From the NCBI GenBank assembly GCA_963702895.1, contig OY969767.1, positions 896,001-960,000 of the forward strand: DNA of 64,000 nucleotides. The letters are read 5' to 3'. Under the pieces are notes generated by a model. That model saw only the letters and a list, made by a program, of their open reading frames with translations. It ran no database searches and had not been told where the DNA came from. Origin of the DNA: an uncultured Elusimicrobia bacterium. GTDB taxonomy: Bacteria; Elusimicrobiota; Elusimicrobia; 2-01-FULL-59-12. The position numbers and the translations under genes were made by a program. Positions 11,726 through 59,362 of this stretch are shown in pieces. How positions within the stretch are numbered: the first letter of the stretch is position 1; every line of letters starts with the position of its first letter.

Positions 11726-11812
11726 TGCCCCCAGCCGGAATCGGTCGCCAGACTACAGGCGACCGCCCGCCGGATGTCTGGCGGGCGAACCTGGTTCGAT
11801 GTCCGGCTGGGC
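11726..11812 (-). repeat. Duplicated 3' end of tRNA-Arg with a 44-bp double hairpin in the T-loop, followed by an inverted T-arm copy
   Basis: tgcccccagccggaatcg[11744-11787]aacc matches the tRNA 3' end; ctggttcgatgtccggctggg is the opposite-strand copy. Confidence 0.8.
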
Positions 11813-11832
11813 TGGTTTCAGCCAATTTCAAT

Positions 11833-11904
11833 TGCCCCCAGCCGGAATCGAACCAGCATCTGCTCCTTAGGACGGAGTAGCACTATCCATTGTGCTATGG
11901 GGGC
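11833..11904 (-). tRNA. tRNA-Arg(CCT), CCA not encoded
   Basis: Cloverleaf GCCCCCA..TGGGGGC, T-loop GGTTCGATTCC, anticodon loop GTCCTAA (atypical G32). Confidence 0.85.
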
Positions 11905-11920
11905 GATAGCGCCTTTCGGT

Positions 11921-12445
11921 TTAATATCTCAGGAGCGAGGTGACCTCGTAGCCCCGAAGTTTTTCCCTGCCATGGAGGAATTCCAATTCGATGGCAAACG
12001 AAAGCCCTGCGACTTTCGCTTGAAGTTGCTCCACCAGCAGGCAGGTGGCCCTGGCGGTGCCGCCGGTGGCCAGCACATCATCGATGATCAACACGCGCGA
12101 GGAGCTGGTCAAGGCATCCGCGTGCACTTCCAGGGTGTCGGTGCCGTATTCCAGTTCATACGTATGCGAAAGCGTCTTGTAGGGAAGTTTCCCTTTCTTG
12201 CGGATGGGAATGTAGCCGGCCCCCAGAAGATACGCCACCGGCGCGCCAAAAATAAATCCGCGCGACTCGATGGAAGCCACATGCGTGATGCCTTTGCGCT
12301 GGAAGGGACCTGCCAAACGCTCCAGGGCCGACTTGAAGAGCTCAGCATTTTGTAATAAGGGTGTAATGTCTTTAAAGACGATGCCCGGCTTGGGAAAATC
12401 AGGGACGTCTCGAATCGAAGCGCGAATTTTTTCAATCACCGGCAT
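11921..12445 (-). CDS. apt: Adenine phosphoribosyltransferase
   Basis: DFPKPGIVFKDITPLL, YELEYG, IIDDVLATGGT. Confidence 0.95.
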   Translation of the reverse strand: MPVIEKIRASIRDVPDFPKPGIVFKDITPLLQNAELFKSALERLAGPFQRKGITHVASIESRGFIFGAPVAYLLGAGYIPIRKKGKLPYKTLSHTYELEYGTDTLEVHADALTSSSRVLIIDDVLATGGTARATCLLVEQLQAKVAGLSFAIELEFLHGREKLRGYEVTSLLRY

Positions 12446-12446
12446 C

Positions 12447-13274
12447 TTAAACAATCCCCATGCGCTGAGCGAGACGTCGCAGCCTTTCGAGCCCCCGCTT
12501 TTCCAGCTGGCGGATCCGTTCGCGCGAAACACGGAGTTTCTTGCCGACTTCTTCCAGCGTTTGGTTTTCGCCGTTTAAGCCAAAGCGCATTTCCAGAATT
12601 TGACGTTCCCGAAGCGGCAACTGTGACAAGGCGACGTCCAGTTCGTCGTGGAGCTTAAAAAGGGAGATCAAGCGGTCGGGCGCATAGAGCTCATCATCCG
12701 AAATGACATCTTTGATCGTGAGATTTTCATCATCATCAAGCGGAGCTTCCAGGCTCCCAATGCCCCGGGCCGCTTCGGCGGCATCGAGAATCCCCTTCAC
12801 CTGGCGTGCCGATAAATGGAGCTTTTGCGCCATCTCCTGAAGCGTGGGATCGCGGCCCAGCTGGCCATGCAATTGGTCCCATTGCCTGAGCCAGCGCCGC
12901 AGGGCTTCCCAGGCATGGGGCGGAATGCGGATGGTTTTGGATTGCTCATCAATGGCCCGGCGAATCGATTGCTCGATCCAATAAGCGCCGTAGGTTGAGA
13001 AACGGAAACCCTTCGTGGGGTCAAATTTATCAATAGCATGCATGAGGCCCAAATTGCCTTCCTCAATAATGTCTAAAAAATCCAAGCCCGGCCGGTAGTA
13101 TTTCTTGGCGATGGGGATCACCAAGCGAAGGTTGCGTTCGACGAGTTCCTTCTTGGCGGCCTTGTCCCCCTTGTGGGCGCGCCGCCAGAGCGTATTAAAC
13201 GACTCACGCGATAATTCGGGAAAATCCTTAATCGCTCGGAAATAAAGCGAGACAGCATCTAAACTTTCGACCAT
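12447..13274 (-). CDS. Sigma-70 family factor, RpoD/RpoS-like, lacking region 1.1
   Basis: NLRLV, DIIEEGNLGLMHAIDKFD, FSTYG.YWI, TLEEVG..VSRERIRQLE. Confidence 0.9.
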   Translation of the reverse strand: MVESLDAVSLYFRAIKDFPELSRESFNTLWRRAHKGDKAAKKELVERNLRLVIPIAKKYYRPGLDFLDIIEEGNLGLMHAIDKFDPTKGFRFSTYGAYWIEQSIRRAIDEQSKTIRIPPHAWEALRRWLRQWDQLHGQLGRDPTLQEMAQKLHLSARQVKGILDAAEAARGIGSLEAPLDDDENLTIKDVISDDELYAPDRLISLFKLHDELDVALSQLPLRERQILEMRFGLNGENQTLEEVGKKLRVSRERIRQLEKRGLERLRRLAQRMGIV

Positions 13275-13324
13275 GAACGCGTCCTTTATCTCTCAAGTCT
13301 TGACATCATTCGTCACGGGCTGGA

Positions 13325-13567
13325 TCGGGGCGGCCGGGATTTGCCCGCCACACTTCTGGCGGGCATCCGCCTGTTTTGTGGCGGATGAACCCGGGACCTC
13401 TTGGTCCCACCTTCGCAGCTCTGCGCAGAGTCGGGGCGCCGGGATTTGAACCCGGGACCTCTTGGTCCCGAACCAAGCGCGCTACCAGCTGCGCTACGCC
13501 CCGACTCTGCGCAAGCTTTGGTTGGCTATCCCGAACCAAGCGCGCTACCAACTGCGCTACGCCCCGA
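13325..13567 (-). pseudogene. Interrupted outer copy of tRNA-Pro(CGG): 3' half 13325-13408 and 5' half 13529-13566, flanking the intact copy
   Basis: The two halves rejoin into a full tRNA-Pro(CGG), with TCCC duplicated at the break; the T-loop carries a 44-bp insert. Confidence 0.78.
13431..13503 (-). tRNA. tRNA-Pro(CGG)
   Basis: CGGGGCG acceptor stem, anticodon arm CTTGG-TTCGGGA-CCAAG, T-loop GGTTCAAATCC. Confidence 0.95.
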
Positions 13568-13642
13568 TCAAGCCAGCGCCGGGATTTGTCCCGCCTTCCC
13601 CTGGCCAGACGGCCTCCCAAAATCAGGACGGCGAGAATTCTA

Positions 13643-14758
13643 TCATATTGATCGAATCAGTCGGGAGATCTGCCTGGCCACTTCCATCGCGGCGTAGGGG
13701 CGCGCTATGTTTCGAGCATTTTCAGCCATTTTCTTAAGACGTGTCGGATGGTGCAAGAGAGTTTCCGCCACGCGAGCGATCTCCATCGAGTCACTGGCTT
13801 GTTCAGCGACGCCGGCTTTGATGAGAAATCGGGCATTACGCTCTTCTTGTCCGGGGATGGGGTTCACGATGAGAATGGGAAGCCCTTTGGCAAGCGCCTC
13901 CGAAGAGGTGAGGCCCCCGGGCTTGGTCACGAGAAGATCGGCCGCGTCCATCAGCTCGCTGATATGCCGTGTGTAGCCAAACAGACGAATGGACCGGTCC
14001 CGTCCATAACGTTTTTGAAGCGCGCGGTACGTCTCACGGTTGAGACCGGTCGACACAATACATTGCACAGAGGCCGCATGCAAGCGGTCGACCATTTCCT
14101 GGATGGGTCCCAGCCCCTGGCTTCCTCCCATCACCAAGAGCGTAGGGCTTTTCGGGTCCAGCCCGAGCTTCTCGCGGGCCTGCACGCTGGGGGTATGACG
14201 CAAAAAATCAGGACTGATCGGAATGCCCGTCACCGCGATTTGGGTGGCGGGCAGGCCCTGCTGAATGAGGTATCTCCGTTCCTCTTCCGTGGCGACGCAG
14301 TAGAGGTCCACTTCGGGGTGGACCCAATAAGCGTGAAGAGCGAAGTCCGTCATGACGGCAATCAGCGGAATCGCCAAGTGCCCCCGCCTCTTTTCTGCCG
14401 CAAACAGAGAGCAGGGCACCGCTTGCGTGCAAACCAAAGCCTGCGGGTTATGCTTTTTGAGGAGTGAGCGCATCTTGGGAACAGAAATCAAATTCAAGAG
14501 ATCGCGAACCTCTCGGGTCGCTTCTTCGACATCGGGATTGTCGTAAACCAAGTCCCACAGGATGGGGGTGTAACGAAGAATTTCCAGGTAGGTTCGGGAA
14601 ACGATTTTGCCGATGGTGGGGTAGGCATAGGAAAAGGCGTCGATGCCCACGGTTTCCCATGTCGGATTGAGCGTCGCGAGCGCCTCCCGGGCAGCGTCTG
14701 CGGCGCGCTGGTGGCCAGAAGAGCTGGAGATATAAAGGAACAAAACCCGTGTGGTCAT
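13643..14758 (-). CDS. MGDG synthase/UgtP-like glycosyltransferase (GT28)
   Basis: SGHQRAA, VMTDF..H..W, MGGSQG, TKPGGLTSSEA, PIPGQEERNA. Confidence 0.85.
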   Translation of the reverse strand: MTTRVLFLYISSSSGHQRAADAAREALATLNPTWETVGIDAFSYAYPTIGKIVSRTYLEILRYTPILWDLVYDNPDVEEATREVRDLLNLISVPKMRSLLKKHNPQALVCTQAVPCSLFAAEKRRGHLAIPLIAVMTDFALHAYWVHPEVDLYCVATEEERRYLIQQGLPATQIAVTGIPISPDFLRHTPSVQAREKLGLDPKSPTLLVMGGSQGLGPIQEMVDRLHAASVQCIVSTGLNRETYRALQKRYGRDRSIRLFGYTRHISELMDAADLLVTKPGGLTSSEALAKGLPILIVNPIPGQEERNARFLIKAGVAEQASDSMEIARVAETLLHHPTRLKKMAENARNIARPYAAMEVARQISRLIRSI

Positions 14759-14812
14759 GAGTTTACGCGACAGCGGGACATGGGTACGACGTTCCACATG
14801 GATACTGGGTCA

Positions 14813-14908
14813 TCGGGCCGGCGGGATTTGCCCGCCACACTTCTGGCGGGCATCCGCCTGTTGTCTGGCGGATGAACCCGTATGGTTCTTGGAATCGGGC
14901 CGGCGGGA
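14813..14908 (-). repeat. Two duplicated 3' ends of tRNA-Pro(GGG); the first has a 44-bp double hairpin in the T-loop
   Basis: tcgggccggcgggatttg[14831-14874]aacccg and aatcgggccggcggga (14893-14908) match the tRNA 3' end. Confidence 0.8.
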
Positions 14909-14942
14909 CGTGGACGTGAGATCCTGGAGATATGATGCACAA

Positions 14943-15014
14943 TCGGGCCGGCGGGATTTGAACCCGCGACCTCTCCCACCCCAAAGGAGCGCGCTACCCC
15001 TGCGCCACGGCCCG
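14943..15014 (-). tRNA. tRNA-Pro(GGG)
   Basis: CGGGCCG acceptor stem, anticodon loop TTGGGGT, T-loop GGTTCAAATCC; follows the IHF-merR pair as in many bacteria. Confidence 0.93.
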
Positions 15015-28066: not shown

Positions 28067-29629
28067 ATGACCGAGACCATCGACGTTCTCGCAACCCGTG
28101 CCACCGTCTGCCGTGCTCCCGTTGGCTTTGATAACCAGAAGTACCTTCGCGAGCAGACCGAAGCGATTCTTGAGCGCGTCGCCGCCTATCCCGACAAGCT
28201 CTATCTCGAGTTTGGAGGCAAACTCCTTTACGACTACCACGCGGCACGGGTGCTCCCGGGTTTTGACCCGAATGTGAAGATGCATCTCTTGCAAAACCTG
28301 AAGGACAAAGCGGACATCATCCTGTGCATTTATGCGGGAGATATCGAACGCAAGAAGGTCCGCGCCGACTTCGGCATCACCTACGATGTGGACGCTTTCA
28401 AGCAGATCGACGACATGCGGCGCTGGGGGATCGAGGTGACGGCCGTTGTCATCACCCGCTTCACCGGACAGCCCTCGGCGAAGGTGTTTAAAAACAAGCT
28501 CGAGAGAAGAAACATCCCCGTCTACACCCACTACCAGATTCCGGGGTATCCGGCGGACCTGGAGCTCGTGGTGAGCGAAGAGGGCTACGGCAAGAACGAT
28601 TATGTCGAGACCACCAAGCCCCTGGTCATCGTCACAGGGCCGGGCCCCGGGAGCGGGAAACTCTCGACGTGCCTTTCCCAGCTATATCACGATTACCGAC
28701 GGGGGTGTGTGTCGGGTTATTCGAAATTTGAGACGTTTCCGATCTGGAACTTGCCGCTCAAGCACCCGGTCAACGTCGCTTACGAAGCGGCGACGGCCGA
28801 TATCGCGGACTTCAACCTGATCGATCCGTTTCATCTGCAGACCTACGGCGAAACGACCGTCAACTACAACCGGGATGTGGAGATCTTCCCGATCTTGAAA
28901 CGTATCCTGGAAAGAATCACCGAAGCAAAATCCCCCTACCAATCGCCCACCGACATGGGGGTGAACCGCGCGGGGTTCGGTATTGTGGATGATGCGGCCG
29001 TGCAAGACGCGGCGCGGCAGGAGATTGTCCGGCGCTATTTCCGCATGGCCAGTGAATACGCCATGGGGCTTGTGGAAAAGAAGGCGGTGGAGCGCTGCTC
29101 CTGCATCATGGAAGAGTTTGGTTTAAAACCCGAGGACCGACCGGTTGTCGAACCCGCCCGCCGCGCCGCGGAAGAAGCGCGGCAGATTGGCCGGGGAAAC
29201 AACGGCATTTATTGCGGCGCGGCCATCCGGCTTCCGAATGGCACGGTCATTACGGGATCTAATTCCCCCACGATGCATGCCGCCTCAAGCCTGATCGTCA
29301 ACACCCTCAAACACCTGGCCGAGCTGCCTCGGCCCTTGCGGCTCCTGGCGCCTGCGGTGATGGATTCGATCAAAGAATTAAAGCAGGAGATCCTGCAGGG
29401 TGAAAACATCAGTCTCGATTTGGAGGAGACCTTGATTGCCTTGAGCATCAGCTCGGCCGCCAACCCGACGGCGCACCTGGCGATGAAGCAGTTGAAGGAA
29501 CTGCGGGGCTGTGAAGTCCACATGACGCACCTGCCCACACCGGGAGATGAGGCAGGACTCCGCCGGCTCGGCGTCAATCTGACGAGCGAACCGACGTTCT
29601 CGAGCAAGAACCTTTTCGAAAGCCGCTAA
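28067..29629 (+). CDS. DUF1846/UPF0371 family P-loop protein
   Basis: KLYLEFGGKL..D.HAARVLPG, GPGSGK, KFETFPIWN, SPTDMGVN. Confidence 0.88.
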   Translation: MTETIDVLATRATVCRAPVGFDNQKYLREQTEAILERVAAYPDKLYLEFGGKLLYDYHAARVLPGFDPNVKMHLLQNLKDKADIILCIYAGDIERKKVRADFGITYDVDAFKQIDDMRRWGIEVTAVVITRFTGQPSAKVFKNKLERRNIPVYTHYQIPGYPADLELVVSEEGYGKNDYVETTKPLVIVTGPGPGSGKLSTCLSQLYHDYRRGCVSGYSKFETFPIWNLPLKHPVNVAYEAATADIADFNLIDPFHLQTYGETTVNYNRDVEIFPILKRILERITEAKSPYQSPTDMGVNRAGFGIVDDAAVQDAARQEIVRRYFRMASEYAMGLVEKKAVERCSCIMEEFGLKPEDRPVVEPARRAAEEARQIGRGNNGIYCGAAIRLPNGTVITGSNSPTMHAASSLIVNTLKHLAELPRPLRLLAPAVMDSIKELKQEILQGENISLDLEETLIALSISSAANPTAHLAMKQLKELRGCEVHMTHLPTPGDEAGLRRLGVNLTSEPTFSSKNLFESR

Positions 29630-29632
29630 ACT

Positions 29633-29723
29633 GAAGTACCGGAGTCTCGGGGTAACGGAGTATCGGAGTAAAATAGGTTGCGCTCTTACTCCGGCACCCC
29701 GATACGCCGATCCTCCGATACCT
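29633..29723. repeat. GGAGTAYC-type octamer inverted-repeat array
   Basis: gaagtacc ggagtctc ggggtaac ggagtatc..ggcacccc gatacgcc gatcctcc; same family as the insert in miaB. Confidence 0.8.
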
Positions 29724-29730
29724 AAGTGAG

Positions 29731-46063: not shown

Positions 46064-46069
46064 TGGAGT

Positions 46070-46180
46070 TCGTCCTAGGTCCGAGGTCCGACGTCCCGAG
46101 ACCCTTCGGGTGTAGTGGCTGCCCGTACTGGCCGCCGAAGGCGACCTGTAAGGGCGTCGTACGTCGCACGTCGGACGGTT
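46070..46180. repeat. CGTCCGA/GGTCCGA heptamer inverted array between pilZ and mutL
   Basis: ggtccga ggtccga cgtcccg..gtcgtac gtcgcac gtcggac; same family as inserts in aroA and miaB. Confidence 0.7.
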
Positions 46181-46875: not shown

Positions 46876-48530
46876 CCCAATTTTTCACCGCTCGGTCGCC
46901 GCGGCGACCAGGTTTCTCGCCTGCTTCGGGTACCCTTGGCTTCCCTCGGAGGCGGTTCAGACTACCGTCTGATCAATTGTCGGCCTTTTGCGGCAGTTTT
47001 CGCCGCTCCGACCCTCTGTTCGGTTCTTTCCCTCCGTCGATGCCTTCGGTGTCGCCGTCCCGTCAATCAACCGGTAGACGCGATCACCACAGACAGCCCC
47101 AACACGCCATAGCGCGCCTCTTCAAAAACCCGCCGGAACGGGTAGTTTTCCGGAATCTTTAACCACAGATAGCGCGACTTCCGGCACACTGTCCCGGCCA
47201 AGCGGATCAGCCGGTGCCGCAGCGTCTGGATCGTGAAGCTCTGCCAGGCTTTCGGCAGAACCAAATGCTTGAAGGCTGCCGTGACCACCGACGCCAACAT
47301 CGCGATCTGGAAATAGGCGGCATTGGCCATAAAATCCCGGCACGGCAGCTTGGATAATCCAAACCCACCCTCGCTCTTCATCTCCCGGTTCACGTTCTCC
47401 GACCCATCCTGCCGGTTACGGTGAAATTGCAGAACCAATCCCGGTTCCCATGTGAACCGCGTCGCCACCGCATGGTATTCAAAGTGCTCCTTATCGAAAA
47501 GCTCGCCTTGCGGCTCCTGCTGCCAGCGCACCACGACCAACCGAAATGCGGCGATATCCTTGTCCGCCTCCCCAAAAGCATGCACCGTCTCGGCAATCTC
47601 AGATCCCTTATGGGGATAGACCGGCGAGTTGTACTTCTTCCAGGCCTTCTCCGGAATCGACCGAATCGCTTCCAAAACGGCATCATCCTTGCGCGCCGTG
47701 ATGGTGAAGTCCACCCCGGCCCGATCCAATTCCCGAACCACCTTCGCCTGATACCCCGCGCTGTCTGAGCGCGCCCTCATCCGCAAACCGGAAAACTGCC
47801 GCAAGACCCGCCGCAACAAACTCGCCAGGTTCGCCATCGGGCTCGCATTGCCTGCCCGAAACGCCCCGGCCAGCGGCATCTTCAGCTCCGCGCAACTGAC
47901 CATCACCGGACAATACCCTTCCAGTCCATCGTAATTCATCAAGACGCCTTCCTTCTGTGACTCCAAAAAATAAGCGTCGATATCGATCGTCACAATAGAC
48001 AGCTCGCAGGCCCGGATCACCTTCGCCGCCGTCTTGAGCTGGACCCATCCCAACCCATGAATCGTCTTGCGCCCAAAACGCCGAAGAAATTCGCCCAACG
48101 TGTTCGCTGCCGGAAAATCCCCCAGCAAGCGCCGTATCCCCTCGTCCCCTTGCAGCAGCCCGATGTCTTCGAGCGCTTCCCCGCCCGCCTGGATCGATCC
48201 CATCAACCCCAAAATACTCTCGGCAGGATCGTATCCCCGCGCCCGCTCCTTCACCGGCAGCGCATTGAGCCGCTCCTCCAACCCCAGGCTCCGTGCCGTC
48301 CCCAACAACAACGGCAGCCCTGCAAAACTCGTCACCGCTTGATCCGTCGTCGAGACCTTGTATACGTCCAAGTTCTTCAGTAACATAAAAGCACCTCGCA
48401 GTTCAGATTCCACTCTGGCTTGCGAGGTATTTTATTGCCTCTGCGCGTCGCTGTAAAATCACGCGCTGCACCCTTTTTCAAAGCCTCCTGTGTTGACCCC
48501 TCATTTTTCACCCAATAAGTGAAACCCTTC
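46876..48530 (-). mobile_element. IS1380-family insertion sequence, ends approximate
   Basis: Transposase plus non-coding flanks; candidate end cccaatttttcacc at 46876; matching opposite IR not resolved. Confidence 0.6.
47067..48386 (-). CDS. IS1380-family DDE transposase
   Basis: TSFAGL, IDID, RSDSAG, FHRNRQ..EN..REMK, F.ANAA, LRHRLIRLAG; start-proximal hairpin at 48391-48430. Confidence 0.88.
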   Translation of the reverse strand: MLLKNLDVYKVSTTDQAVTSFAGLPLLLGTARSLGLEERLNALPVKERARGYDPAESILGLMGSIQAGGEALEDIGLLQGDEGIRRLLGDFPAANTLGEFLRRFGRKTIHGLGWVQLKTAAKVIRACELSIVTIDIDAYFLESQKEGVLMNYDGLEGYCPVMVSCAELKMPLAGAFRAGNASPMANLASLLRRVLRQFSGLRMRARSDSAGYQAKVVRELDRAGVDFTITARKDDAVLEAIRSIPEKAWKKYNSPVYPHKGSEIAETVHAFGEADKDIAAFRLVVVRWQQEPQGELFDKEHFEYHAVATRFTWEPGLVLQFHRNRQDGSENVNREMKSEGGFGLSKLPCRDFMANAAYFQIAMLASVVTAAFKHLVLPKAWQSFTIQTLRHRLIRLAGTVCRKSRYLWLKIPENYPFRRVFEEARYGVLGLSVVIASTG

Positions 48531-51203: not shown

Positions 51204-51816
51204 GGGCCATCCCAAAAAGATATTTCCAGCCCTGCAGCATTTTCAGAATCCCAAAGGTCCGCTCGACGCGCTTCACGAATTTGCGGGTTTCGGGGTAAGG
51301 AATGTCACGGATTTCAAGGACGGGCTTGCCTTGGCGCCACTGGCTCGTCACGCCGGGCCCGGCGTTATAGGCGGCCAGGACCGCTACGTCATCGTCAGGA
51401 AAGAGGAATTGGAGCTTCGTCAGATAATAGACACCCAGATGGAGATTCGTGTCGGGATCCTTCAAGTCATCATCGTTTTCAATGACAACACCGATCTCGG
51501 GGGCGATCTCACGCGCCGTCGAGGGCAAGATCTGCATCAGTCCCACCGCGCCACGGGACGATCGCGCTCCGGGGAGAAAGCCCGACTCCACCTTGATGAT
51601 CGCCATCACCCAAAGGGGATCGCATTTGAAGACGCCGGCATATTTGTTGATCAAAGGTTTGTTCAAGACGGGGCGAAACCAGATCCAAGCGGTGCCCGAG
51701 TAGATCAAGGCGAGGAGCAGAAGAACCACGGCGAGCAGCAACCCGCGGAATAAGCGGCGCTTGGTGCGCTCGACCGGCGGCATCCTGCGCAGCTCGCGCG
51801 CGTACACGCCTACCAT
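51193..51816 (-). CDS. Lytic transglycosylase (SLT domain)
   Basis: IKVES, GAVGLMQI, LAAYNAG, ETRKFV. Confidence 0.92.
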   Translation of the reverse strand: MVGVYARELRRMPPVERTKRRLFRGLLLAVVLLLLALIYSGTAWIWFRPVLNKPLINKYAGVFKCDPLWVMAIIKVESGFLPGARSSRGAVGLMQILPSTAREIAPEIGVVIENDDDLKDPDTNLHLGVYYLTKLQFLFPDDDVAVLAAYNAGPGVTSQWRQGKPVLEIRDIPYPETRKFVKRVERTFGILKMLQGWKYLFGMAHGK

Positions 51817-53117
51817 CGCGCGGCCTCTTTCTTGGGGATGGCCTTGTCCGCGTTCAAGGAAAGATTGAGGGACAGAACTTTTTGGAGCCGTGATTCTTTG
51901 ATGTCTTGGCTGACATCATCCGGTTCTTGAGCGGAAGTCGTGCCGGGCCTTGGCGAATATTGAAAGGCGAAAAGGCCATTAAACCGAACTTCTTCAATCA
52001 GGGAGAGGCTCTCGTCAAAATCTTCATCCGATTCGCCGGGATAACCGACAATGATGTCGGTTGTCAGGCTGATCCCAGGCAAGGCCTTTCTCAAACGTCT
52101 TACGACATCCAGATAATCCTCACGGGAGTAAAGTCGCTTCATCCGGGAAAGAACTGCGCTCGAGCCGGACTGAACGGGCAAGTGGACATGGCGGGCGACT
52201 TTCTCGCACGATTGGATGGCTTCCACCACGCGCTCACGCATGTGGACCGGATGAGGGCTCATGAAACGGATGAGTTCGACGCCTGGGAGGGCGTTGACGG
52301 CGCGCAGCAAGTCCGCGAAATCAACGACCGTATCGGGGTAACGGGGTAACGGGGTAACGGTGTCACGGCTTAACTGAGATGTTGTGACTTCGTTACTCCG
52401 ATACTCCGGTACTCCGGTACTCCGATACTCCGGTACTCCGATACTCCGGTACTCCGATACTCCGGTACGGTAGTAATAAGAATTGACGGTCTGTCCCAAC
52501 AGCATCACTTCGCGGTATCCTTCGGCAACCTTCTTCTGAATTTCGCTCAGGATCTCGGCGACGGGGCGGTACTTCTCCCGACCGCGTACCTGGGGCACGA
52601 TGCAGTAGGAGCAAGCGAGGTTACAGCCGCGCATGATGGTGATGTAGGCCGTTGACTCATTTCCAAAAAGGCCGTCCGACGTGCGACGTCCGACGCCAAT
52701 CTCCGGACCTCGGACCTCGGACCTCGGACGAAAAAGCGCAGCTTCATTTCCCCAATTCCACCTGTCCTTCAACACTTGCGCGATCGCTTCTGGAAAGTTT
52801 TCGATTTGGGTAGCGGGCGAGACAAGATCTACAAAAGGGTATTTCTTTTTGAGGGAGTCCCCCCAGAGGCTTGCCGCGCAGCCCGCGACAATAAGGAGCC
52901 GGTCCGGATTTTCTCTTTTCCAGTCGCGGAGTCGCCCGAGGTTGGAGATCGCCTTGTGTTCGGCATGTTCGCGCACGGTGCAGGTGTTCATGATCAGGAC
53001 ATCGGCGTCATCGGGTTCCAACGTCCGGACGAGCCCGCGCTCCCGGAGCGGCTGGGCCATCTCCTCCGAATCCGCGACGTTCATCTGACAACCGTAGGTG
53101 ATGAGGTGGTATTTCAT
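51810..53117 (-). CDS. miaB: tRNA-i6A37 methylthiotransferase (radical SAM); no TRAM domain evident; two in-frame repeat inserts
   Basis: TYGCQMNVADSE, NTCTVRE.AE, GCNLACSYCIVP, HLPVQSGS, TDIIVGYPGE, YSPRPGT. Confidence 0.95.
   Translation of the reverse strand: MKYHLITYGCQMNVADSEEMAQPLRERGLVRTLEPDDADVLIMNTCTVREHAEHKAISNLGRLRDWKRENPDRLLIVAGCAASLWGDSLKKKYPFVDLVSPATQIENFPEAIAQVLKDRWNWGNEAALFRPRSEVRGPEIGVGRRTSDGLFGNESTAYITIMRGCNLACSYCIVPQVRGREKYRPVAEILSEIQKKVAEGYREVMLLGQTVNSYYYRTGVSEYRSIGVPEYRSTGVPEYRSNEVTTSQLSRDTVTPLPRYPDTVVDFADLLRAVNALPGVELIRFMSPHPVHMRERVVEAIQSCEKVARHVHLPVQSGSSAVLSRMKRLYSREDYLDVVRRLRKALPGISLTTDIIVGYPGESDEDFDESLSLIEEVRFNGLFAFQYSPRPGTTSAQEPDDVSQDIKESRLQKVLSLNLSLNADKAIPKKEAARW
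52328..52468. repeat. Octamer inverted-repeat array in frame within miaB
   Basis: ggggtaac x3, then 9 units of g(a/g/t)tactcc. Confidence 0.9.
52675..52730. repeat. Heptamer inverted-repeat array in frame within miaB
   Basis: gtccgac gtgcgac gtccgac..cggacct x3 cggacg. Confidence 0.85.
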
Positions 53118-53576
53118 CTACATCCTGAATATGGGAACAAGCATTATCCTGAATAGCGAAAATATAAGCACCGATAGTGAAAGAAAAGAATATACCAGCC
53201 AACCCGCTGATGTGCGGTAAACGAACTTCAATACAATCCACTTGGCGGCCCCAGTCACAAGAGCTTCCAGCACAAGCCAGAATAACCAATGGGGTCCCGT
53301 TGGGTAAACATAGCTTGAAAGTTCAGCAGACCAATATTTCTCTGTTGGGGTTGGGATGACGAAGCTCGAACCCGCAACGGTTAGAGCCGTCATGATGAGA
53401 AGAGCGCTGGCTTGTTGCTGACGTGAAAGGTTGGAAGACCGCAATGAAATCAAAAAATCGATTGTTGCGGAAACGACCAAACCCGGAAGCAACGCCCCTA
53501 GATTTTGAAAAGGTTGCTTTCGAAAAATAGCGACCTCTAAACGGCTCCATACTATTGGTTCACCCAAATAGCTCAT
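53118..53576 (-). CDS. Cassette gene: multi-TM hypothetical protein
   Basis: Hydrophobic ORF whose TAG directly abuts the miaB ATG; start uncertain. Confidence 0.6.
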   Translation of the reverse strand: MSYLGEPIVWSRLEVAIFRKQPFQNLGALLPGLVVSATIDFLISLRSSNLSRQQQASALLIMTALTVAGSSFVIPTPTEKYWSAELSSYVYPTGPHWLFWLVLEALVTGAAKWIVLKFVYRTSAGWLVYSFLSLSVLIFSLFRIMLVPIFRM

Positions 53577-53980
53577 ATCATGCAGCCACCTTAAATTGGG
53601 CAAAATGCACTTTCTGCTCCCACCGTAAGAGCTTGCACAACGGGGGAAAGTCTTTGAGTGGCGGCTTCATCCGACAATACTGCTTTGCATCCAATTTGTT
53701 CGGTACCATCGCCAAGCGCTAGCGTCCCCATCCTTTGAGCTTAGAGGAAGGAGCAGTCCTCGGCGGTGCGCGAGATGGGTGACAGGCACCAATCTAACGC
53801 ATTTCATAGTATTTTCCTCGTTCTTAGATCTCGGTCCCATTCTTCGCTGGACGGTTGTTACGCGATGATCACCAAATAATCTTCTTCCGGGCTGCACACA
53901 ACGTGGATTGTCCTCGCGGCAGAGGTAATTCCCATCCTATGGCAGCTACGCATAAGGCAACCTTTATGCGAATCGAATGG

Positions 53981-54181
53981 TCAGGCGGCTTTTCGAGGAT
54001 GGAGAGCCTCATCCAGACTGACATAGCCAGCCTGGATCGCAGAACAAACGCGCATAAGATGAAGCTCATACATCATGTCATCAGTAGGGAATTCCTCGCG
54101 AACATGCTTCGCCAATAGCTGTAGCTTCTCTGACGGAACCTTGGCCTCTCGGGCAACTGCTTCATAGTCGAAATAACGCAT
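53981..54181 (-). CDS. Putative antitoxin partner of the PIN protein
   Basis: 66 aa, AAGGAG RBS, directly downstream of the PIN gene; EEFPTDDMMYELH. Confidence 0.65.
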   Translation of the reverse strand: MRYFDYEAVAREAKVPSEKLQLLAKHVREEFPTDDMMYELHLMRVCSAIQAGYVSLDEALHPRKAA

Positions 54182-54193
54182 GATATCGCTCCT

Positions 54194-54649
54194 TTAAATT
54201 TCTGGCGGAGCTACGATCTCAATGGTCGGCAACCCACGTGCTGTGTTGAGTTGGTTGACTAACGCCCGCCGGCGCCGGTTGACCAGATGCTTAAAATTCC
54301 ATGACAGAAGGATGTCTTGCCGCGACAAAACTGCTGCCGAAACGTGAAGCGCGTCGTCAGCCATCGTTGGCAAGAAAATGCCGCCATCAATATAATGCTT
54401 TGCCAATTCTTTCATTTCGGCGTCGATCTTCAACAGATTAAATCCTTCCAGTAATTTCAGAAGCTTAACGCGATGATCCGGATCGGGAGTTCGGGCCAGT
54501 TCTTGACGCGCCAACTCCGATGTCGAGAACTCATACTGATGAAGCCGCTTCCAAAATTCTGTTGTATCGGCCTTCCGCTCCGGCGCGCGGTCATCGAGAT
54601 AGGCGCTGAAAACGGAAGTATCCAAATAAACTCGGAGCTTTATAGACAT
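54194..54649 (-). CDS. PIN-domain (VapC-like) nuclease
   Basis: VYLDTSV, DALH, LLSWNFKHLVN. Confidence 0.88.
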   Translation of the reverse strand: MSIKLRVYLDTSVFSAYLDDRAPERKADTTEFWKRLHQYEFSTSELARQELARTPDPDHRVKLLKLLEGFNLLKIDAEMKELAKHYIDGGIFLPTMADDALHVSAAVLSRQDILLSWNFKHLVNRRRRALVNQLNTARGLPTIEIVAPPEI

Positions 54650-54832
54650 CGTATCACCGCGATAATTTTAGCACCTTGAAGCTCACTTGCTTAAAATCTT
54701 TGAGCGCTTGAAAAGCTGCTGGATAGGCTAAAAGGCCTGTTCGTCGCCTACTGAAAGCGTCTGGGCTACGTAGAGCACCCTCATCAAGGCGGCTTCCTCC
54801 ACGCTGACGGGTTGATATCCAATTTGTCGCAT

Positions 54833-54866
54833 ATGGCCAGCCGTAGGTAATGAGATGATATTTCAT
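54833..54866 (-). repeat. miaB head copy R7
   Basis: ATG AAA TAT CAT CTC ATT ACC TAC GGC TGG CCA. Confidence 0.92.
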
Positions 54867-55171
54867 GGATGTCCGCTAAGTAAGAAACGTTGTGCCAACT
54901 TGCCCAAACCATAAAGGAGGAAACAATAAAAGGTCGCAACAAGGATAACTCCCGGCCAAGTGGGGAAGGACCAATAAGCGCTCATGCCAAGGCCCAGGGG
55001 ACGTAGCACTGGTCGTGCAGGCAGATATATTGCGTAGGCGAGTGATAGCAGATTAGTCGCCAGAACCGGTAGGTGCTCTCCCCATAGCGACAATACCGCC
55101 AGGCTGGAGATATTCCACACCAAGAATGCGCCGGGAAGAAGAAGGGCCAGATGCCGCTTAAGGTATGTCAC
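54863..55171 (-). CDS. Cassette gene: 102-aa membrane protein, copy A
   Basis: GGGAGG RBS, hydrophobic, near-identical to 57685-57993. Confidence 0.8.
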   Translation of the reverse strand: MTYLKRHLALLLPGAFLVWNISSLAVLSLWGEHLPVLATNLLSLAYAIYLPARPVLRPLGLGMSAYWSFPTWPGVILVATFYCFLLYGLGKLAQRFLLSGHP

Positions 55172-55278
55172 ATTCCTCCCCTATCGCATGCTCGGCTGCC
55201 CATGCGAGCGTCCGCGCAATACCTTCCAGTCTATCTGCCGCCAAAATCCGCTTGGCAGAACAGTGAATCCAATCCATT

Positions 55279-55311
55279 CGGCCAGCCATAGGCGATCAAA
55301 AAATAGTTCAT
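55279..55311 (-). repeat. Degenerate miaB head copy R6
   Basis: ATG AAC TAT TTT TTG ATC GCC TAT GGC TGG CCG (MNYFLIAYGWP). Confidence 0.75.
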
Positions 55312-55463
55312 TTTTAGGGTTGTTTTGAGATGCCGGATTCATTAGAGCCAAACCCATCGATGAAAACTTCAGTGGGTGGTCAGAACCGTACGTAACCACG
55401 CCGGAGATCATATCGTGAATTTGGAGGCCATGGGCCTCTCAGAAAGAACAGGCCTCAGTCACT

Positions 55464-55745
55464 TTAAGCGGCCCGGTGGTGCGAGCGGTGGTTGATGGCG
55501 CGGGCCACCAGCGGATAGCGTTCGGGATGCGTCAGCGATTCCAAGGCCAGATCGATATCAAGGTCCGGCCAATAGAGGTGACTCCCATGGAGCAGGCTCA
55601 CATGGTGAATTTGGTTTATGGTGGCGTTTCCGAACCACGGGAACAGCCGATAAGGCAAAAAGTATTCTTGTCCTTTCACCAGCAGCCATACAGCCTGCTT
55701 GTTGACACTCAAAATCTCAACGGCTGAAATGCTCTTTCCATGCAT
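55464..55745 (-). CDS. DUF2442-like protein (putative TA component)
   Basis: LPY..FPWF..AT, HLYWPDLDIDL..ESL..PERYPL. Confidence 0.8.
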   Translation of the reverse strand: MHGKSISAVEILSVNKQAVWLLVKGQEYFLPYRLFPWFGNATINQIHHVSLLHGSHLYWPDLDIDLALESLTHPERYPLVARAINHRSHHRAA

Positions 55746-55956
55746 GGATAATCTCCACTTTCCGAGATTCAATGATACGGCGTAACTCCAGGAGTCGTCG
55801 CGACGTGAAACCACTATGGGTCGCAAGGGACACAATGGGTTCAAGCCAGAATTTCGCTTCTCCTTCTGGCGAGACCACATGAACATGAATGCGTGATTCT
55901 TCGCGTGAAAAGAAGAAAAAGCGGTAATTCTTATGACGAAATATCGTTGGACTCAC
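55717..55956 (-). CDS. DUF4160-like protein (putative TA component)
   Basis: YRFFFFSREESRIHVHV..GEAKFWL..AW.EHF. Confidence 0.85.
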   Translation of the reverse strand: MSPTIFRHKNYRFFFFSREESRIHVHVVSPEGEAKFWLEPIVSLATHSGFTSRRLLELRRIIESRKVEIIHAWKEHFSR

Positions 55957-56003
55957 GGGTTATGACTAAAATTATACCCTTTCTCCTCTTGCTTGTGGTA
56001 TCC

Positions 56004-56196
56004 CGCGCAAACGCCCCAGGTTGGAGAGGGCCTTGTGCTCGGCATGCTCGCGCACGGTGCAGGTGTTCATGAGGATGACGTCCGCTTGTCCGACGTCCGA
56101 CGTCTGAAGGAACCCGCGATCCTGGAGCGGCTGGGCCATCTCCTCCGAATCCGCGACGTTCATCTGGCATCCATATGTAATCAGGTGGTATTTCAT
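56004..56196 (-). pseudogene. Long miaB head copy R5 (first ~64 codons of a divergent miaB allele)
   Basis: MKYHLITYGCQMNVADSEEMAQPL..NTCTVREHAEHKALSNLGRLR, then unrelated sequence. Confidence 0.92.
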
Positions 56197-56744
56197 TTGA
56201 GCTGTAGACTGTTAAGAATCTCTAGGTAAATATTCTTGAACAGTGGTTGTGAGAGTGGATAGATGATTTCGATAACGTCAGCTTTTTTATAAGCCTGAAT
56301 GTAGTAGTGTGCGTTACGCCCGATCTCAGAAACCTCGCAACGGATGGCAGGACGTTTGCCAACGGTAACCTGTTCTACCTGCAAGGGTGGAGTTGTGGCG
56401 TTGTGATAAAAATCTTTTGCCTCAAACCACTTATGTATGGCGAGCTTCTGCGGATTTTGATTAACACCTAAATTTATAGTGAAGTTGGATTCGTTATCTA
56501 AGCTTTTGTCATTTTCTTCCGAAAACTCTTTCACATTGCTTAGAGTAACGCGGTATAAGTCTGTAAACGTTTTTTCTCGCACATGCCATTCCGATGGATA
56601 TCGGAGCTGAATTCCTGCCGTTTCCAATTTTAAGTTTGACCATGGCGATGGATCAGACATAACGGGCTGTACGCTGCACAGTGTCAAAAAGCTGGTAAAC
56701 GCAGCGGTTGCTAATATGTACACGACATTTCTCAATCTTTGCAT
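56193..56744 (-). CDS. Cassette gene: exported PsbP-like protein
   Basis: Signal-like N-terminus, LRYPSEW and ILNSLQLK pattern; stop overlaps head R5. Confidence 0.6.
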   Translation of the reverse strand: MQRLRNVVYILATAAFTSFLTLCSVQPVMSDPSPWSNLKLETAGIQLRYPSEWHVREKTFTDLYRVTLSNVKEFSEENDKSLDNESNFTINLGVNQNPQKLAIHKWFEAKDFYHNATTPPLQVEQVTVGKRPAIRCEVSEIGRNAHYYIQAYKKADVIEIIYPLSQPLFKNIYLEILNSLQLK

Positions 56745-56784
56745 GGCTTCAGCGCACCTCAATTGATATCCAATTTGTTTTATA

Positions 56785-56817
56785 TGGCCAGCCGTAGGTG
56801 ATCAGGTAATATTTCAT
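56785..56817 (-). repeat. miaB head copy R4
   Basis: ATG AAA TAT TAC CTG ATC ACC TAC GGC TGG CCA. Confidence 0.9.
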
Positions 56818-57383
56818 TCGATAACCTGAGCTTCTTTTTGAAGTCGCAACCATTCGGCTTCGATCGCCAACTCTTTGGCCCAAAGGTTGATGTAAGTTAA
56901 ATCAAGTTTGTTGAATTGCACTTCATAAACACGAAGCGCATCGATGAATTGTTTTTCGCTGCCACCGGATTGTTGTGCCCATCGCAGCTTCATTAGGATC
57001 GTATCTTCAGCCCGAGTCACCTGCATCTTCAAGCCGAAGAAATCTTCAGTGTATCGCCGCTGAAATCGGGACTGATCAAAGGCATCAGAAGTCAGGGGCC
57101 AGAAGTCGACCTTGTCCCCACCATTGACATCGATGAGGTTCACCATTTGACCGGATTTCAAAGCGTCGCGGAGGCCATCCGCGTCTAGATAATAGTGAGG
57201 GGACGGGAAGGCGGCGAGAAGCCGTGGGATGGAGGCCGCTTGGATTGCGATGACCACATCGATATCATGCGTGGCTCGCGGTTCTCCTTGCAGGCTGGAA
57301 ACCACCGATCCCGTGATCATGTAATCGATTTGCGCGGATTCGAGTGTTTGAACGACTTTGCTTAGTAATTCCTGTTGTGACAT
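56814..57383 (-). CDS. Nucleotidyltransferase-like putative toxin
   Basis: YMITGS..GEPRATHDIDVV, EDTILMKL. Confidence 0.8.
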   Translation of the reverse strand: MSQQELLSKVVQTLESAQIDYMITGSVVSSLQGEPRATHDIDVVIAIQAASIPRLLAAFPSPHYYLDADGLRDALKSGQMVNLIDVNGGDKVDFWPLTSDAFDQSRFQRRYTEDFFGLKMQVTRAEDTILMKLRWAQQSGGSEKQFIDALRVYEVQFNKLDLTYINLWAKELAIEAEWLRLQKEAQVIE

Positions 57384-57565
57384 TTATCGAGCCGGTCGCG
57401 GACAATTTCTTGTAGTTTTTCTCCTGAGATCCCGGCGAAGCGTTTGCGCAGTCCATGAATAAAGAGCTGTTTGGAAAATTCAGACAGTTCAAACGCCTTT
57501 TGCAGCCGCTGAGCAGGCGACAACGCGCGCAACATCCGCAGATAAACGGGAGAGTTCTTTTTCAT
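57362..57565 (-). CDS. Small putative antitoxin
   Basis: 67 aa, LRALSPAQRL..AFELS; overlaps the toxin start. Confidence 0.7.
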   Translation of the reverse strand: MKKNSPVYLRMLRALSPAQRLQKAFELSEFSKQLFIHGLRKRFAGISGEKLQEIVRDRLDKCHNRNY

Positions 57566-57655
57566 GTGGGATGCGACTATTGTACTCAGATTATGCGGGC
57601 ACCTGAACGGCTCCGATTGCGTGGCACTGATTGTTCAGTAGGAACCCTGAACGTA

Positions 57656-57688
57656 TGGCCAGCCGTAAGTGATGAGGTGGTACTTCAT
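57656..57688 (-). repeat. miaB head copy R3
   Basis: ATG AAG TAC CAC CTC ATC ACT TAC GGC TGG CCA. Confidence 0.92.
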
Positions 57689-57993
57689 GGGTGTCCGTCA
57701 AAAAAGTAACGCTGTGCCAACTTGCCCAAACCATAAAGGAGGAAACAATAAAAGGTCGCAACAAGGATTACGCCCGGCCAAGTGGGGAAGGACCAATAAG
57801 CGCTCATGACAAGGCCCAGGGGACGTAGCAGTGGTCGTGCAGGCAGATAGATTGCGTAGGCGAGTGATAGCAGATTAGTCGCCAGAACCGGTAGGTGTTC
57901 TCCCCATAGCGACAATACCGCCAGGCTGGAGATATTCCACACCAAGAATGCGCCGGGAAGAAGAAGGGCCAGATGCCGCTTAAGGTATGTCAC
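57685..57993 (-). CDS. Cassette gene: 102-aa membrane protein, copy B
   Basis: Near-identical to 54863-55171. Confidence 0.8.
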   Translation of the reverse strand: MTYLKRHLALLLPGAFLVWNISSLAVLSLWGEHLPVLATNLLSLAYAIYLPARPLLRPLGLVMSAYWSFPTWPGVILVATFYCFLLYGLGKLAQRYFFDGHP

Positions 57994-58100
57994 ATTCCTC
58001 CCCTATCGCATGCTCGGTTGTCCATGCGAGCGTCCGCGCAATACCTTCCAGTCTATCTGCCGCCAAAATCTGCTTGGCAGGATAGTGAATCCAATCCATT

Positions 58101-58193
58101 CGGCCAGCCGTGCCACTTCCTGTTTTGAGAATAGGCGGCACCGTTCGGGCACAAACGCATGCCCTCGCGGAAGGTGATGAGGTGGAATTTCAC
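58101..58193 (-). repeat. miaB head copy R2, split by a ~60-nt insert
   Basis: GTG AAA TTC CAC CTC ATC ACC T[insert]AC GGC TGG CCG. Confidence 0.78.
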
Positions 58194-59023
58194 GTGGCGC
58201 CTCTCTTCTTGGCGACGACAACGAGAGAGCCTCCCCACGGAAGCGACCGGCCTGAGAAAATCAATCTCTCGTCGGCCCGCATCACGAAATCTCCCATGGC
58301 ATCCAACCACGGCGGGAGATGCAATTCGCTGTCATCCATTCCGCTCCGTTTTTTCATAAACCGATTCTTGACTCTTGAAAGATACATGGCAGGAAAGAGT
58401 GAAAACACAAAGGAGCTGATGAAAGAGACCTCGAGCCCTGCTTGAGACACCTTTTGCACCAGTTCTTTGCGAGAGTACCTGCGTTTATGCATTGCAACAA
58501 CGTCAGTTTGACTCCAGAGGGATGGGTGTTGAGGGACTGTCAAGAACAGTAGTCCGTTGACTTTCAGAGCAGCATGGATCTGTTTAAGGACGATGACATC
58601 ATTCTCGATATGTTCAAGAACATCAAATACCCCAATTCCATCGAAGGCTTCCACGTAAGGTAAGCGCGTTGCATCCAGCTGAACCAGTTCCACACCATCG
58701 AGCCTCTTGGCAGCCCATTTTAGACCAGCGAGGTTCAATTCTGCCCCGGTCAAATGAAGATTCTTAAATTTCGACAGCCCGTTCAGAACAAATCCTGTTC
58801 CGCATCCAATCTCGAGAAACTTCGCTGTGCGATTTCCAAAGTGCTGGCATATGAGGTGCTCAAGGATACGTTGCCTGCTACGGAACCAAAAACTTCCCGC
58901 CTCCGACCTGTAGAGCGCTGGGTAGCTTTCAGGAGGAAAATCAGAATTTCCGGAACCCAGTTCGGGAGCGTAACATTTGATGTTATCGATAACTACGTAT
59001 GAAGGTTCAGTCCCTTCGCTCAT
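58190..59023 (-). CDS. Cassette gene: class I SAM-dependent methyltransferase
   Basis: FWFRSR, LEIGCGTG, FDVLEHI, LTVP, HKRRYS. Confidence 0.88.
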   Translation of the reverse strand: MSEGTEPSYVVIDNIKCYAPELGSGNSDFPPESYPALYRSEAGSFWFRSRQRILEHLICQHFGNRTAKFLEIGCGTGFVLNGLSKFKNLHLTGAELNLAGLKWAAKRLDGVELVQLDATRLPYVEAFDGIGVFDVLEHIENDVIVLKQIHAALKVNGLLFLTVPQHPSLWSQTDVVAMHKRRYSRKELVQKVSQAGLEVSFISSFVFSLFPAMYLSRVKNRFMKKRSGMDDSELHLPPWLDAMGDFVMRADERLIFSGRSLPWGGSLVVVAKKRGAT

Positions 59024-59080
59024 GAATAGGACCCTGGGTGTTCTGCATTGCTTTGGCGAGCCGTGACGCCACCCGCGAAA

Positions 59081-59215
59081 TTAGATACGTCCGACGCCAT
59101 AGCACCGTTGCAATATCCAGTGGACAGCGAATTCTGGCCAAAAAATGGCGGCAATGCCAATCGATGAGAAGATTGCGATGACCGACATGGGGATCATAAG
59201 GCCGCGTTCAAACAT
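59081..59215 (-). CDS. 44-aa single-TM peptide coupled (TAATG) to the head R1 ORF
   Basis: MFERGLMIPMSVIAIFSSIGIAAIFWPEFAVHWILQRCYGVGRI, read manually. Confidence 0.35.
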   Translation of the reverse strand: MFERGLMIPMSVIAIFSSIGIAAIFWPEFAVHWILQRCYGVGRI

Positions 59216-59316
59216 TAGCGAAAAACCTTTCTGTGCCCATCGGGAGCGTCTGGGCCGCCTTCAGGAACCTTGCTTCTGGGTACTCCTCGGCGAAAAGATG
59301 CTGAATCAAACCCATT

Positions 59317-59349
59317 CGACCAGACATAGGTGATCAAGTGGTATTTCAC
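59317..59349 (-). repeat. miaB head copy R1 (promoter-proximal)
   Basis: GTG AAA TAC CAC TTG ATC ACC TAT GTC TGG TCG. Confidence 0.88.
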
Positions 59350-59356
59350 GTCGGAG

Positions 59357-59362
59357 ATTATA
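59357..59362 (-). promoter_or_regulatory. -10 box TATAAT 7 nt upstream of head R1 (probable leaderless miaB promoter)
   Basis: agcag TATAAT ctccgac GTGAAATAC; no SD sequence before the GTG. Confidence 0.6.

Follow-up and report, generated by a model that had tools for sequence, protein, structure and literature searches.

A cassette array upstream of miaB in an uncultured Elusimicrobia bacterium as a probable tandem-accretion site of a large serine recombinase

The stretch analyzed here, referred to as the window, comprises 64,000 nucleotides (nt) from an uncultured Elusimicrobia bacterium (assembly GCA_963702895.1, contig OY969767.1, positions 896,001 to 960,000). Its minus strand, on which all features of the locus lie, carries seven copies of the first nine codons of miaB, from R1 at 59349 to R7 at 54866, upstream of the intact gene at 53117. 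We regard this array as having grown by tandem accretion at the target site of a large serine recombinase (LSR) specific for miaB and put the probability of this reading at about 0.86. In the terms of such an attachment (att) site, each displaced gene start (head) would be a left arm, the TG of the miaB codon Cys10 the core, and the sequence behind it either the B' arm of miaB or the P' arm of an incoming element, which in the frame of the LSR gene encodes a short peptide called the tail. The intact target gene (51810..53117, 435 amino acids (aa), TIGR01574 385.5 bits with a cut-off of 355.3) would have received its first nine codons from the last cassette. The current target site (53063..53117) consists of the head, the TG core (53090-53089) and the B' arm with miaB codons 10 onward.

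The head R1 (59322..59349, core 59322-59321) is probably the original chromosomal miaB start and would be the outermost attL. A TATAAT box (59357..59362) located 7 nt before its start codon is a candidate leaderless miaB promoter facing the whole array. Similar boxes precede native heads in relatives; the R1 box was missed by a two-hexamer scan, and the promoter and terminator scan gave results at or below chance. Behind R1 follows unit 1 (58106..59322, 1216 bp) with the P' arm and a 37-aa tail (59211-59321; rank 2, E 0.006, with the tail hidden Markov model (HMM) described below) and a gene for a SAM (S-adenosylmethionine) methyltransferase (58190-59023), whose stop overlaps the GTG of R2. 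The head R2 (58106..58193, core 58106-58105) is split by a 60-nt insertion (58112-58171) that lies between the head and its junction. Unit 2 (57661..58106, 445 bp), containing the R2 P' arm with its tail and a 102-aa open reading frame (ORF), is a twin of unit 6. Then come R3 (57661..57688, core 57661-57660) and unit 3 (56790..57661, 871 bp), in which the arm is conserved over ~6 nt only and is followed by a 67-aa ORF and a 189-aa nucleotidyltransferase-like ORF (weak PF10706 match, E 4e-4), the stop of this cargo overlapping the ATG of R4 (56790..56817, core 56790-56789). In unit 4 (56169..56790, 621 bp) the P' arm leads into a 189-aa cargo ORF, the stop of which overlaps the ATG of R5.

R5 (56004..56196) is a 190-nt 5' piece of a divergent miaB allele and not a site-specific scar; it shows 83% identity to miaB over 63 stop-free codons, with 20 of 33 differences at third positions. 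Unit 5 (55284..56169, 885 bp) lacks a P' arm; its core is followed by ~165 nt of miaB and then by a DUF4160 and DUF2442 pair. The degenerate head R6 (55284..55311, core 55284-55283) has five non-synonymous differences from the miaB head and opens unit 6 (54839..55284, 445 bp) with its P' arm and tail (55161-55283) and a 102-aa hydrophobic ORF. R7 (54839..54866, core 54839-54838), with its ATG overlapping the upstream cargo stop (ATGA), leads into a P' arm encoding a 36-aa tail peptide (54731..54838; tail HMM rank 1, E 0.00044). This arm begins unit 7 (53090..54839, 1749 bp), which further contains a PIN gene, a 66-aa partner, an eighth, decayed arm called R8 and a 161-aa ORF whose stop abuts the miaB ATG. 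Unit 7 possibly represents two fused units; the decayed P'-arm/tail copy R8 (53600..53713) was ranked fourth of 85,613 segments by the tail HMM made from relatives only (E 0.13), and a candidate decayed head lies at 53807.

The cargo thus includes a methyltransferase, a PIN protein, the DUF4160/DUF2442 pair, a nucleotidyltransferase-like pair and further ORFs without assignment, of which the PIN protein and the two pairs are presumably toxin-antitoxin-like. Its GC content is 42-53% compared with 57% in the genome. In the other loci only the 66-aa ORF was matched (54% identity to a gene in a cassette of the relative G011), and PADLOC matched one of 10 cargo proteins, a generic methyltransferase match. 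Of the seven displaced heads, five share bases with the stop codon of the cargo before them (as ATGA or GTGA), and the start of miaB directly adjoins such a stop; translation of miaB as the last gene of an operon would be maintained in this way. No such overlap was seen among the 11 miaB starts of relatives examined. The tail frame of R4 runs stop-free into the 189-aa cargo ORF (56193-56789), where the integrase tail may have been co-opted as the N-terminus of the cargo protein.

The junction itself is real. The string GGCTGGCC(A/G) occurs five times on the minus and not at all on the plus strand of the 6.4-kb array, with 0.16 occurrences expected from its genome-wide frequency. An earlier note, made from the sequence alone, had described five heads running into this string; the five copies are there, but only four heads (R3, R4, R6 and R7) lead into it directly, whereas the R2 copy stands 60 nt behind its head. 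All other strings quoted in that note were likewise found on the minus strand in their places, including the continuation TGY CAG ATG in miaB (53090) and R5 (56169). The decayed arm R8 is missing from the note. The motif behind R7 and R4 has two copies in the 2.72-Mb genome and that behind R6, R2 and R1 three, all of them within the array, and a head search of the genome found no other locus of this type. The R2 and R6 motifs do not precede unrelated cargo, as had been supposed; they begin two copies of one 445-bp unit, which show 23 differences and lose similarity at the junctions, and hence count once. The presumed two motif classes also proved to be one class in one register: 12 of 12 arms have a T at position 16 behind the core, where the aligned tails show the middle base of a conserved Ile codon.

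A dyad axis falls on the TG of Cys10 (CCTAYGGC-TG-GCCRWAKG, 12 arms). On average, 4.83 of 7 positions pair around this axis and no more than 2.42 around any of 33 other centres; R2 as the twin of R6 and L112 from another clade were left out here as well as in the frame test below. The arms of the same-order relative G007 contain a 10-bp distal repeat offset by 1 nt. Arms diverge directly after the TG. The 49 distinct attR sites of LSR genes all read TG Y CAR ATG A, with variation in the Gly wobble base and none in the TG. Since target and incoming heads differ at this wobble base (in G250, and in R7 compared with miaB), the exchange has to lie to its right, unless later mutation intervened, and a cut at the TG of Cys10 is suggested. 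A 2-bp core is the signature of serine recombinases, while the sites of tyrosine recombinases have a 6-8-bp spacer. The dyad symmetry anticipated in the earlier note is hence present, but with a 2-bp centre that fits an LSR rather than the tyrosine-recombinase sites it named for comparison. A tyrosine recombinase (integron-, Xer- or dusA-integrase-like) as the maker of the junctions is largely refuted and hardly conceivable: the genome does encode four such enzymes, and dusA islands likewise replace a 5' gene end (PMC4482086), but none of the four lies near the array, the dyad centre has the wrong width, and the P' arm continues the reading frame of an LSR gene. The array also does not qualify as an integron or a cluster of attC sites lacking integron-integrases (CALIN), given that the locus has no tyrosine recombinase and its repeats combine miaB heads with arms of the LSR type; attC folding was not run. 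The TTGGAT words of R6 and R7 are offset by 5 nt, which in our view recalls the zinc-domain spacing of attP and attB sites and is inseparable from coding constraint.

The same junction was found in relatives. Sampling covered the miaB regions of 20 of 53 other genomes with a match and 80 metagenome loci; extra heads occurred at seven of the 98 loci with a miaB start, two of them (L019 and L024) without the junction. Among 11 genomes of the same order a miaB start was recovered from nine, and five of these nine showed the junction (G002, G005, G007, G010 and G011), with less than 4 kb upstream of miaB recovered in several of the junction-less genomes. The metagenome contig L027 has two extra heads, one without the first G of the arm. 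A head-profile scan of 0.9 Mb, in which duplicate loci were left out, gave 21 forward matches, 12 of which continued with GCC or GTC, compared with none of seven matches in the reverse-strand control. A pattern search in 393 genomes of the class matched seven, its backward control two, and the matches in G233 and G489 looked like chance. The recurrence of the junction and the profile scan indicate that breakpoints, apart from R5 and one L027 head, are not scattered along miaB; scattered breakpoints were what the earlier note had regarded as fatal to its idea. Its proposal of a site-specific exchange at the Gly9/Cys10 boundary is supported by the five of nine close relatives and by the cognate enzyme family described below. 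At L019 (genome G038), a displaced head 611 nt upstream of miaB is followed by ~45 nt of miaB-like sequence without P' arm and then by a small gene pair, resembling R5 more than an LSR junction.

A rival explanation requires no site-specific enzyme: transformation would have brought in miaB-linked DNA, which then underwent illegitimate recombination anchored by homology. It explains R5, the mosaic twins and the divergent heads (mostly synonymous differences in R3, R4, R5 and R7), and the competence genes comEC and dprA are encoded. Neither the single nucleotide junction common to six window sites and several genera nor the dyad and the LSR family ending at the junction can be explained in this way, which makes the rival very improbable; it is refuted as the sole cause and stands as a contributor. 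Judged by the R5 allele and by clustered differences between the twin units, a second, homologous process also acted on the array. The opposition of a site-specific enzyme to random homologous recombination made in the earlier note is hence valid for the shared junction and the LSR family and fails at R5, which breaks off ~190 nt into miaB.

Returning to the serine recombinase, its family was identified in relatives. The gene for a 537-aa LSR in G007 has its 3' end within the start of miaB, and 9,786 bp upstream there is a native head carrying the junction (attL); this 9.8-kb stretch is a complete LSR island with the same left junction as in the window. It encodes a rolling-circle Rep domain (PF23343) and a second serine recombinase of 259 aa (258-259 aa in G007 and G002), and no conjugation domain was found in the eight ORFs scanned. 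The LSRs possess Resolvase, Recombinase and zinc ribbon domains (Pfam; P0001, P0002), and their fold matched serine integrases in a structure search. In most of 17 homologues the C-terminus resembles P[T/M]A[A/V]R, and P[T/M]A[A/V]R-stop is ACC TAY GGN TGY CAR ATG A read in another frame. Searching the GTDB, viral and phylum collections yielded 66 matches of at least 150 bits, assigned by source label mostly to Elusimicrobiota and Omnitrophota; 50 of them stop exactly in the miaB codons (GGN TGY CAR ATGA), and two read through the junction. G250 harbors two LSR islands in tandem, with both left junctions breaking after the TG. Distant relatives of the miaB LSR (L187, L188, L149 and L150) end inside tRNA-like sequence, hence the design of an integrase gene spanning its att site seems to occur with tRNA targets, too. 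The genome's own 563-aa LSR (G000:C1:372,976) was rejected as the agent, given its 21% identity and different locus; it lies together with a 207-aa tyrosine recombinase beside metal-uptake-like genes (G000:C1 ~365,000-375,000).

The link between these enzymes and the window is provided by the tail. G002 has a 655-bp integrase-less cassette inserted at the TG of an LSR-type arm; here the LSR frame continues across the junction into the arm of the cassette, which lengthens the enzyme by ~35 residues to 571 aa. Read in the LSR frame, the arms encode related peptides with the consensus GH..LIG......A..RL..V.QTL..GAE. The mean pair score of 12 arms beyond the first 27 nt was 20.2 in this frame, whereas the other five frames scored 13.8-16.1 and 300 shuffles 14.5 ± 0.4. 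When all 85,613 six-frame segments of the genome were scored with the tail HMM, which was built from seven relatives' arms only, the five highest ranks went to R7, R1, R4, R8 and R6 (E 0.0004-0.68); R2 was absent from the 15 best matches listed. The arms of R3, L014 and L015 are decayed, and arms from the distant clade encode tails that are shorter and different. From the frame test and the HMM ranking it follows that the two motif classes are one P' arm doubling as the 3' end of the integrase gene, which bears out the earlier view of the motif as an element-borne half-site; the alternative that the motifs are decayed miaB codons 10-17 was ruled out by the same two results. The P' arm hence encodes a conserved ~36-aa C-terminal helix of the integrase, which is joined to the enzyme only behind a P arm. 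The tails of R1, R2, R6 and R7 have an ATG at codon 3 and might act as free peptides.

Accretion may be envisaged as follows. A circular element would carry an attP composed of a replacement miaB head, the TG and the P' arm, and the recombinase would exchange strands at the TG of Cys10. The old head would stay upstream, joined to the P' arm in the junction observed today, while the incoming head would restore miaB and thereby a site that could be used again, placing the newest unit next to miaB. R1 is probably the oldest head, with growth at the miaB end, since it has a TATAAT box like native heads in relatives. Autonomous islands would have their attP within the 3' part of the integrase gene. 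After integration this gene would stop in miaB (P[T/M]A[A/V]R-stop); on the circle, or with a further unit behind it, it would read on into the P' arm and gain the helical tail. The integrase-less units of the window (0.45-1.7 kb) would depend on a visiting island that mobilises them in trans, and at least one boundary (R5) was made by another process. Such a scheme would name the enzyme and the cut point for a cassette array of uncultured bacteria that resembles an integron, faces a promoter and sits at a housekeeping gene, and it would provide an LSR family with natural attB, attL and attR pairs.

Several observations weigh against this scheme. Neither excision nor a circle or an empty site was observed, and of sequencing runs no RNA set was listed, while one DNA run (share 0.09) gave only short contigs without joints and was uninformative. 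No cognate LSR was found in the 98%-complete genome of the window, nor in the cassette-bearing genomes G005, G010 and G011 (81-92% complete). Nine of the 66 LSR matches end elsewhere, some in tRNA-like sequence, and five run off their locus. The left arms are nearly alike, hence the sequence bounds the cut tightly on the right only. The heads of the cassettes are of the native ATG/GTG type and not of the integrase-gene type, which leaves their acquisition unexplained. Finally, R5 and the G-less L027 junction do not fit a single cut point, and 11 of the 23 differences between units 2 and 6 fall within the last 52 nt at the head end (P ~1e-5), a clustering which indicates that homologous exchange has reworked the units.

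The junctions might also be LSR scars of units that are themselves dead island remnants, arisen by decay like cis-mobilizable elements (CIMEs) and reshuffled only by homologous recombination or transformation. The sites of R2, R3, R6 and R8 are damaged, R5 and the mosaic twins show homologous exchange, comEC and dprA are present, and a three-step route of decay and accretion is known for integrative and mobilizable elements (PMC5704250). However, a C-terminal HMM search found no integrase remnant in the window, the same 445-bp unit occurs from junction to junction in two contexts, a 655-bp unit sits exactly at an LSR-type arm in G002, and five of seven head/cargo-stop overlaps plus the miaB abutment are tidier than random decay. 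We consider such an origin unlikely, yet deserving serious attention. The sequence upstream of R6 had been taken for an integrase 3' remnant from likeness by eye and was rejected, the C-terminal HMM having no match in the window. Accretion of CIMEs resembles the array in that integrase-less units keep their att sites and are stacked by repeated integration into a restored site; CIMEs are, however, described for conjugative elements (PMC5704250), whereas the G007 island has a rolling-circle Rep domain. The window units agree with the definition of CIMEs by lacking integration and transfer genes: they contain no recombinase or remnant and keep att sites, some of them damaged. Regarding an origin by decay, the tails link the units to LSR islands, but the native-type heads do not fit simple deletion.

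AlphaFold models residues 547-568 of the tail as a helix (pLDDT ~60-68) that is attached through a linker of low confidence. When the C-terminal part of the G007 integrase and its own tail were modelled as two chains, the complex score was 0.76 and that of the best control 0.00; 116 of 157 solved pairs and 2 of 215 mismatched ones had passed the score mark, which is roughly applicable here. In docking runs at least 87% of the contacts agreed, with a partner pLDDT of at least 73, and the modelled contacts comprise residues 352-368, 448-478 and 496-501, which flank the coiled coil. Known recombination directionality factors (RDFs) bind the junction of DNA-binding domain 2 (DBD2) and the coiled coil, the C-terminal extensions of LSRs from SCCmec (SCC, staphylococcal cassette chromosome) have been proposed to block this junction, and direction control in Ccr-like LSRs with C-terminal extensions but without an RDF has been called open (PMC12286644). 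The modelled tail hence docks where directionality factors bind, which may reflect the completion of a split fold. Since pieces of split genes tend to pass this kind of test, the result speaks for a tail that is part of the fold, without demonstrating a switch. More tentatively, conservation and this one model allow the speculation that the ~36-aa helix encoded in attP serves the integrase as a built-in switch of direction, the long form integrating and the short form excising, with mini-cassettes keeping the tail. The long integrase made from the circle would hold the helix on the RDF surface and integrate; integration would then cut the helix off, leaving a short form able to excise. A mini-cassette behind a resident island would give the island integrase its long form, an arrangement seen in G002, and would thereby favor its own retention and further accretion. 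Long and short integrase forms that are one modelled helix apart at the RDF surface would make the open question of direction testable. A literature search for an attP-dependent C-terminus of serine integrases found nothing by title or abstract start.

The closest known system is represented by the ssrA islands of Dehalococcoides. These encode a 540-aa CcrB-like LSR (DsiB) and a smaller serine recombinase (DsiA), occur as tandem islands at one site, 15 of them without integration module, and have an integrase gene overlapping att, whose full length has been suggested to exist only in the circular form or behind an adjacent island (PMC3146451). Membership in this group would also call for a six-gene module; G007 has an LSR, a Rep and a small serine recombinase. 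The miaB islands likewise combine an LSR with a small serine recombinase (G007, G002), tandem units and an integrase gene over att. They differ in the target, the 5' coding end of miaB instead of tmRNA (ssrA), in the conserved tail compared with a divergent C-terminus reported for Dehalococcoides (PMC3146451), and in their 0.45-1.7 kb units that must rebuild a protein N-terminus, DsiB being compared by description only. LSR-driven tandem cassettes at one conserved gene are also known from SCC/SCCmec at rlmH, where Ccr recombinases mobilise neighbouring cassettes (PMC11470126), and the model of the miaB LSR has C-terminal beta strands as in SCCmec LSRs (PMC12286644). Its best NCBIfam match is CcrB with 124-126 bits, far under the cut-off of 900, and scores of 73-126 bits against CcrA/B/C cut-offs of 700-900 exclude it from the Ccr members. 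The target is miaB and not rlmH, and the integrase gene itself spans attP; the miaB array is not an SCC.

In the integration-dependent immunity of phage BPs, a tyrosine recombinase reportedly acts on an attP inside a gene, and integration truncates the repressor. The integrase of dusA islands is of the tyrosine type as well. Like the miaB elements, dusA islands integrate into the 5' end of a tRNA-modification gene and supply a replacement 5' end (PMC4482086), but they have no integrase tail, and the word tandem is absent from the text of that report. The archaeal suicidal integrases of SSV1 and pTN3 also have attP inside the gene, and integration rewrites the protein; there a tyrosine recombinase is split into inactive halves (PMC8371274), whereas the serine integrase described here keeps all catalytic and DNA-binding domains and loses only the terminal helix. 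Our literature search on miaB with serine recombinases or islands led to a paper that mentions only a rimO-targeting element, subscription papers, bioRxiv supplements and island databases being outside its scope. In the supplement of PMC10083194, methylthiotransferase activity is listed for 6 of 1069 LSR targets versus 0 of 908 random ones, which is not significant after correction and does not name miaB; the target class is hence not unseen.

Other repeats and elements were noticed in the window. An array of 8-nt repeats in the miaB coding frame (52322-52482) corresponds to an insert of ~45 residues that relatives do not have (alignments break at ~218-262), and a related inverted array is found at 29628-29727. 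Dispersed short repeats of the GTCCGA(C/G)GTCCGA type occur at 999-1018, 46069-46178, 52672-52732 and 56088-56107, some of them falling within coding regions, namely miaB and the R5 piece, and some forming inverted pairs. The region 11728-14998 contains tRNA-like repeats with partial duplicates and an adjoining 66-nt repeat (families D7, D9, D13, D14 and D17), and by this repeat pattern is possibly a second integration site. Finally, a transposase gene (47067-48413; PF13701, DDE_Tnp_1_4) is located between ORFs labelled by eye as mutS-like and mutL-like.

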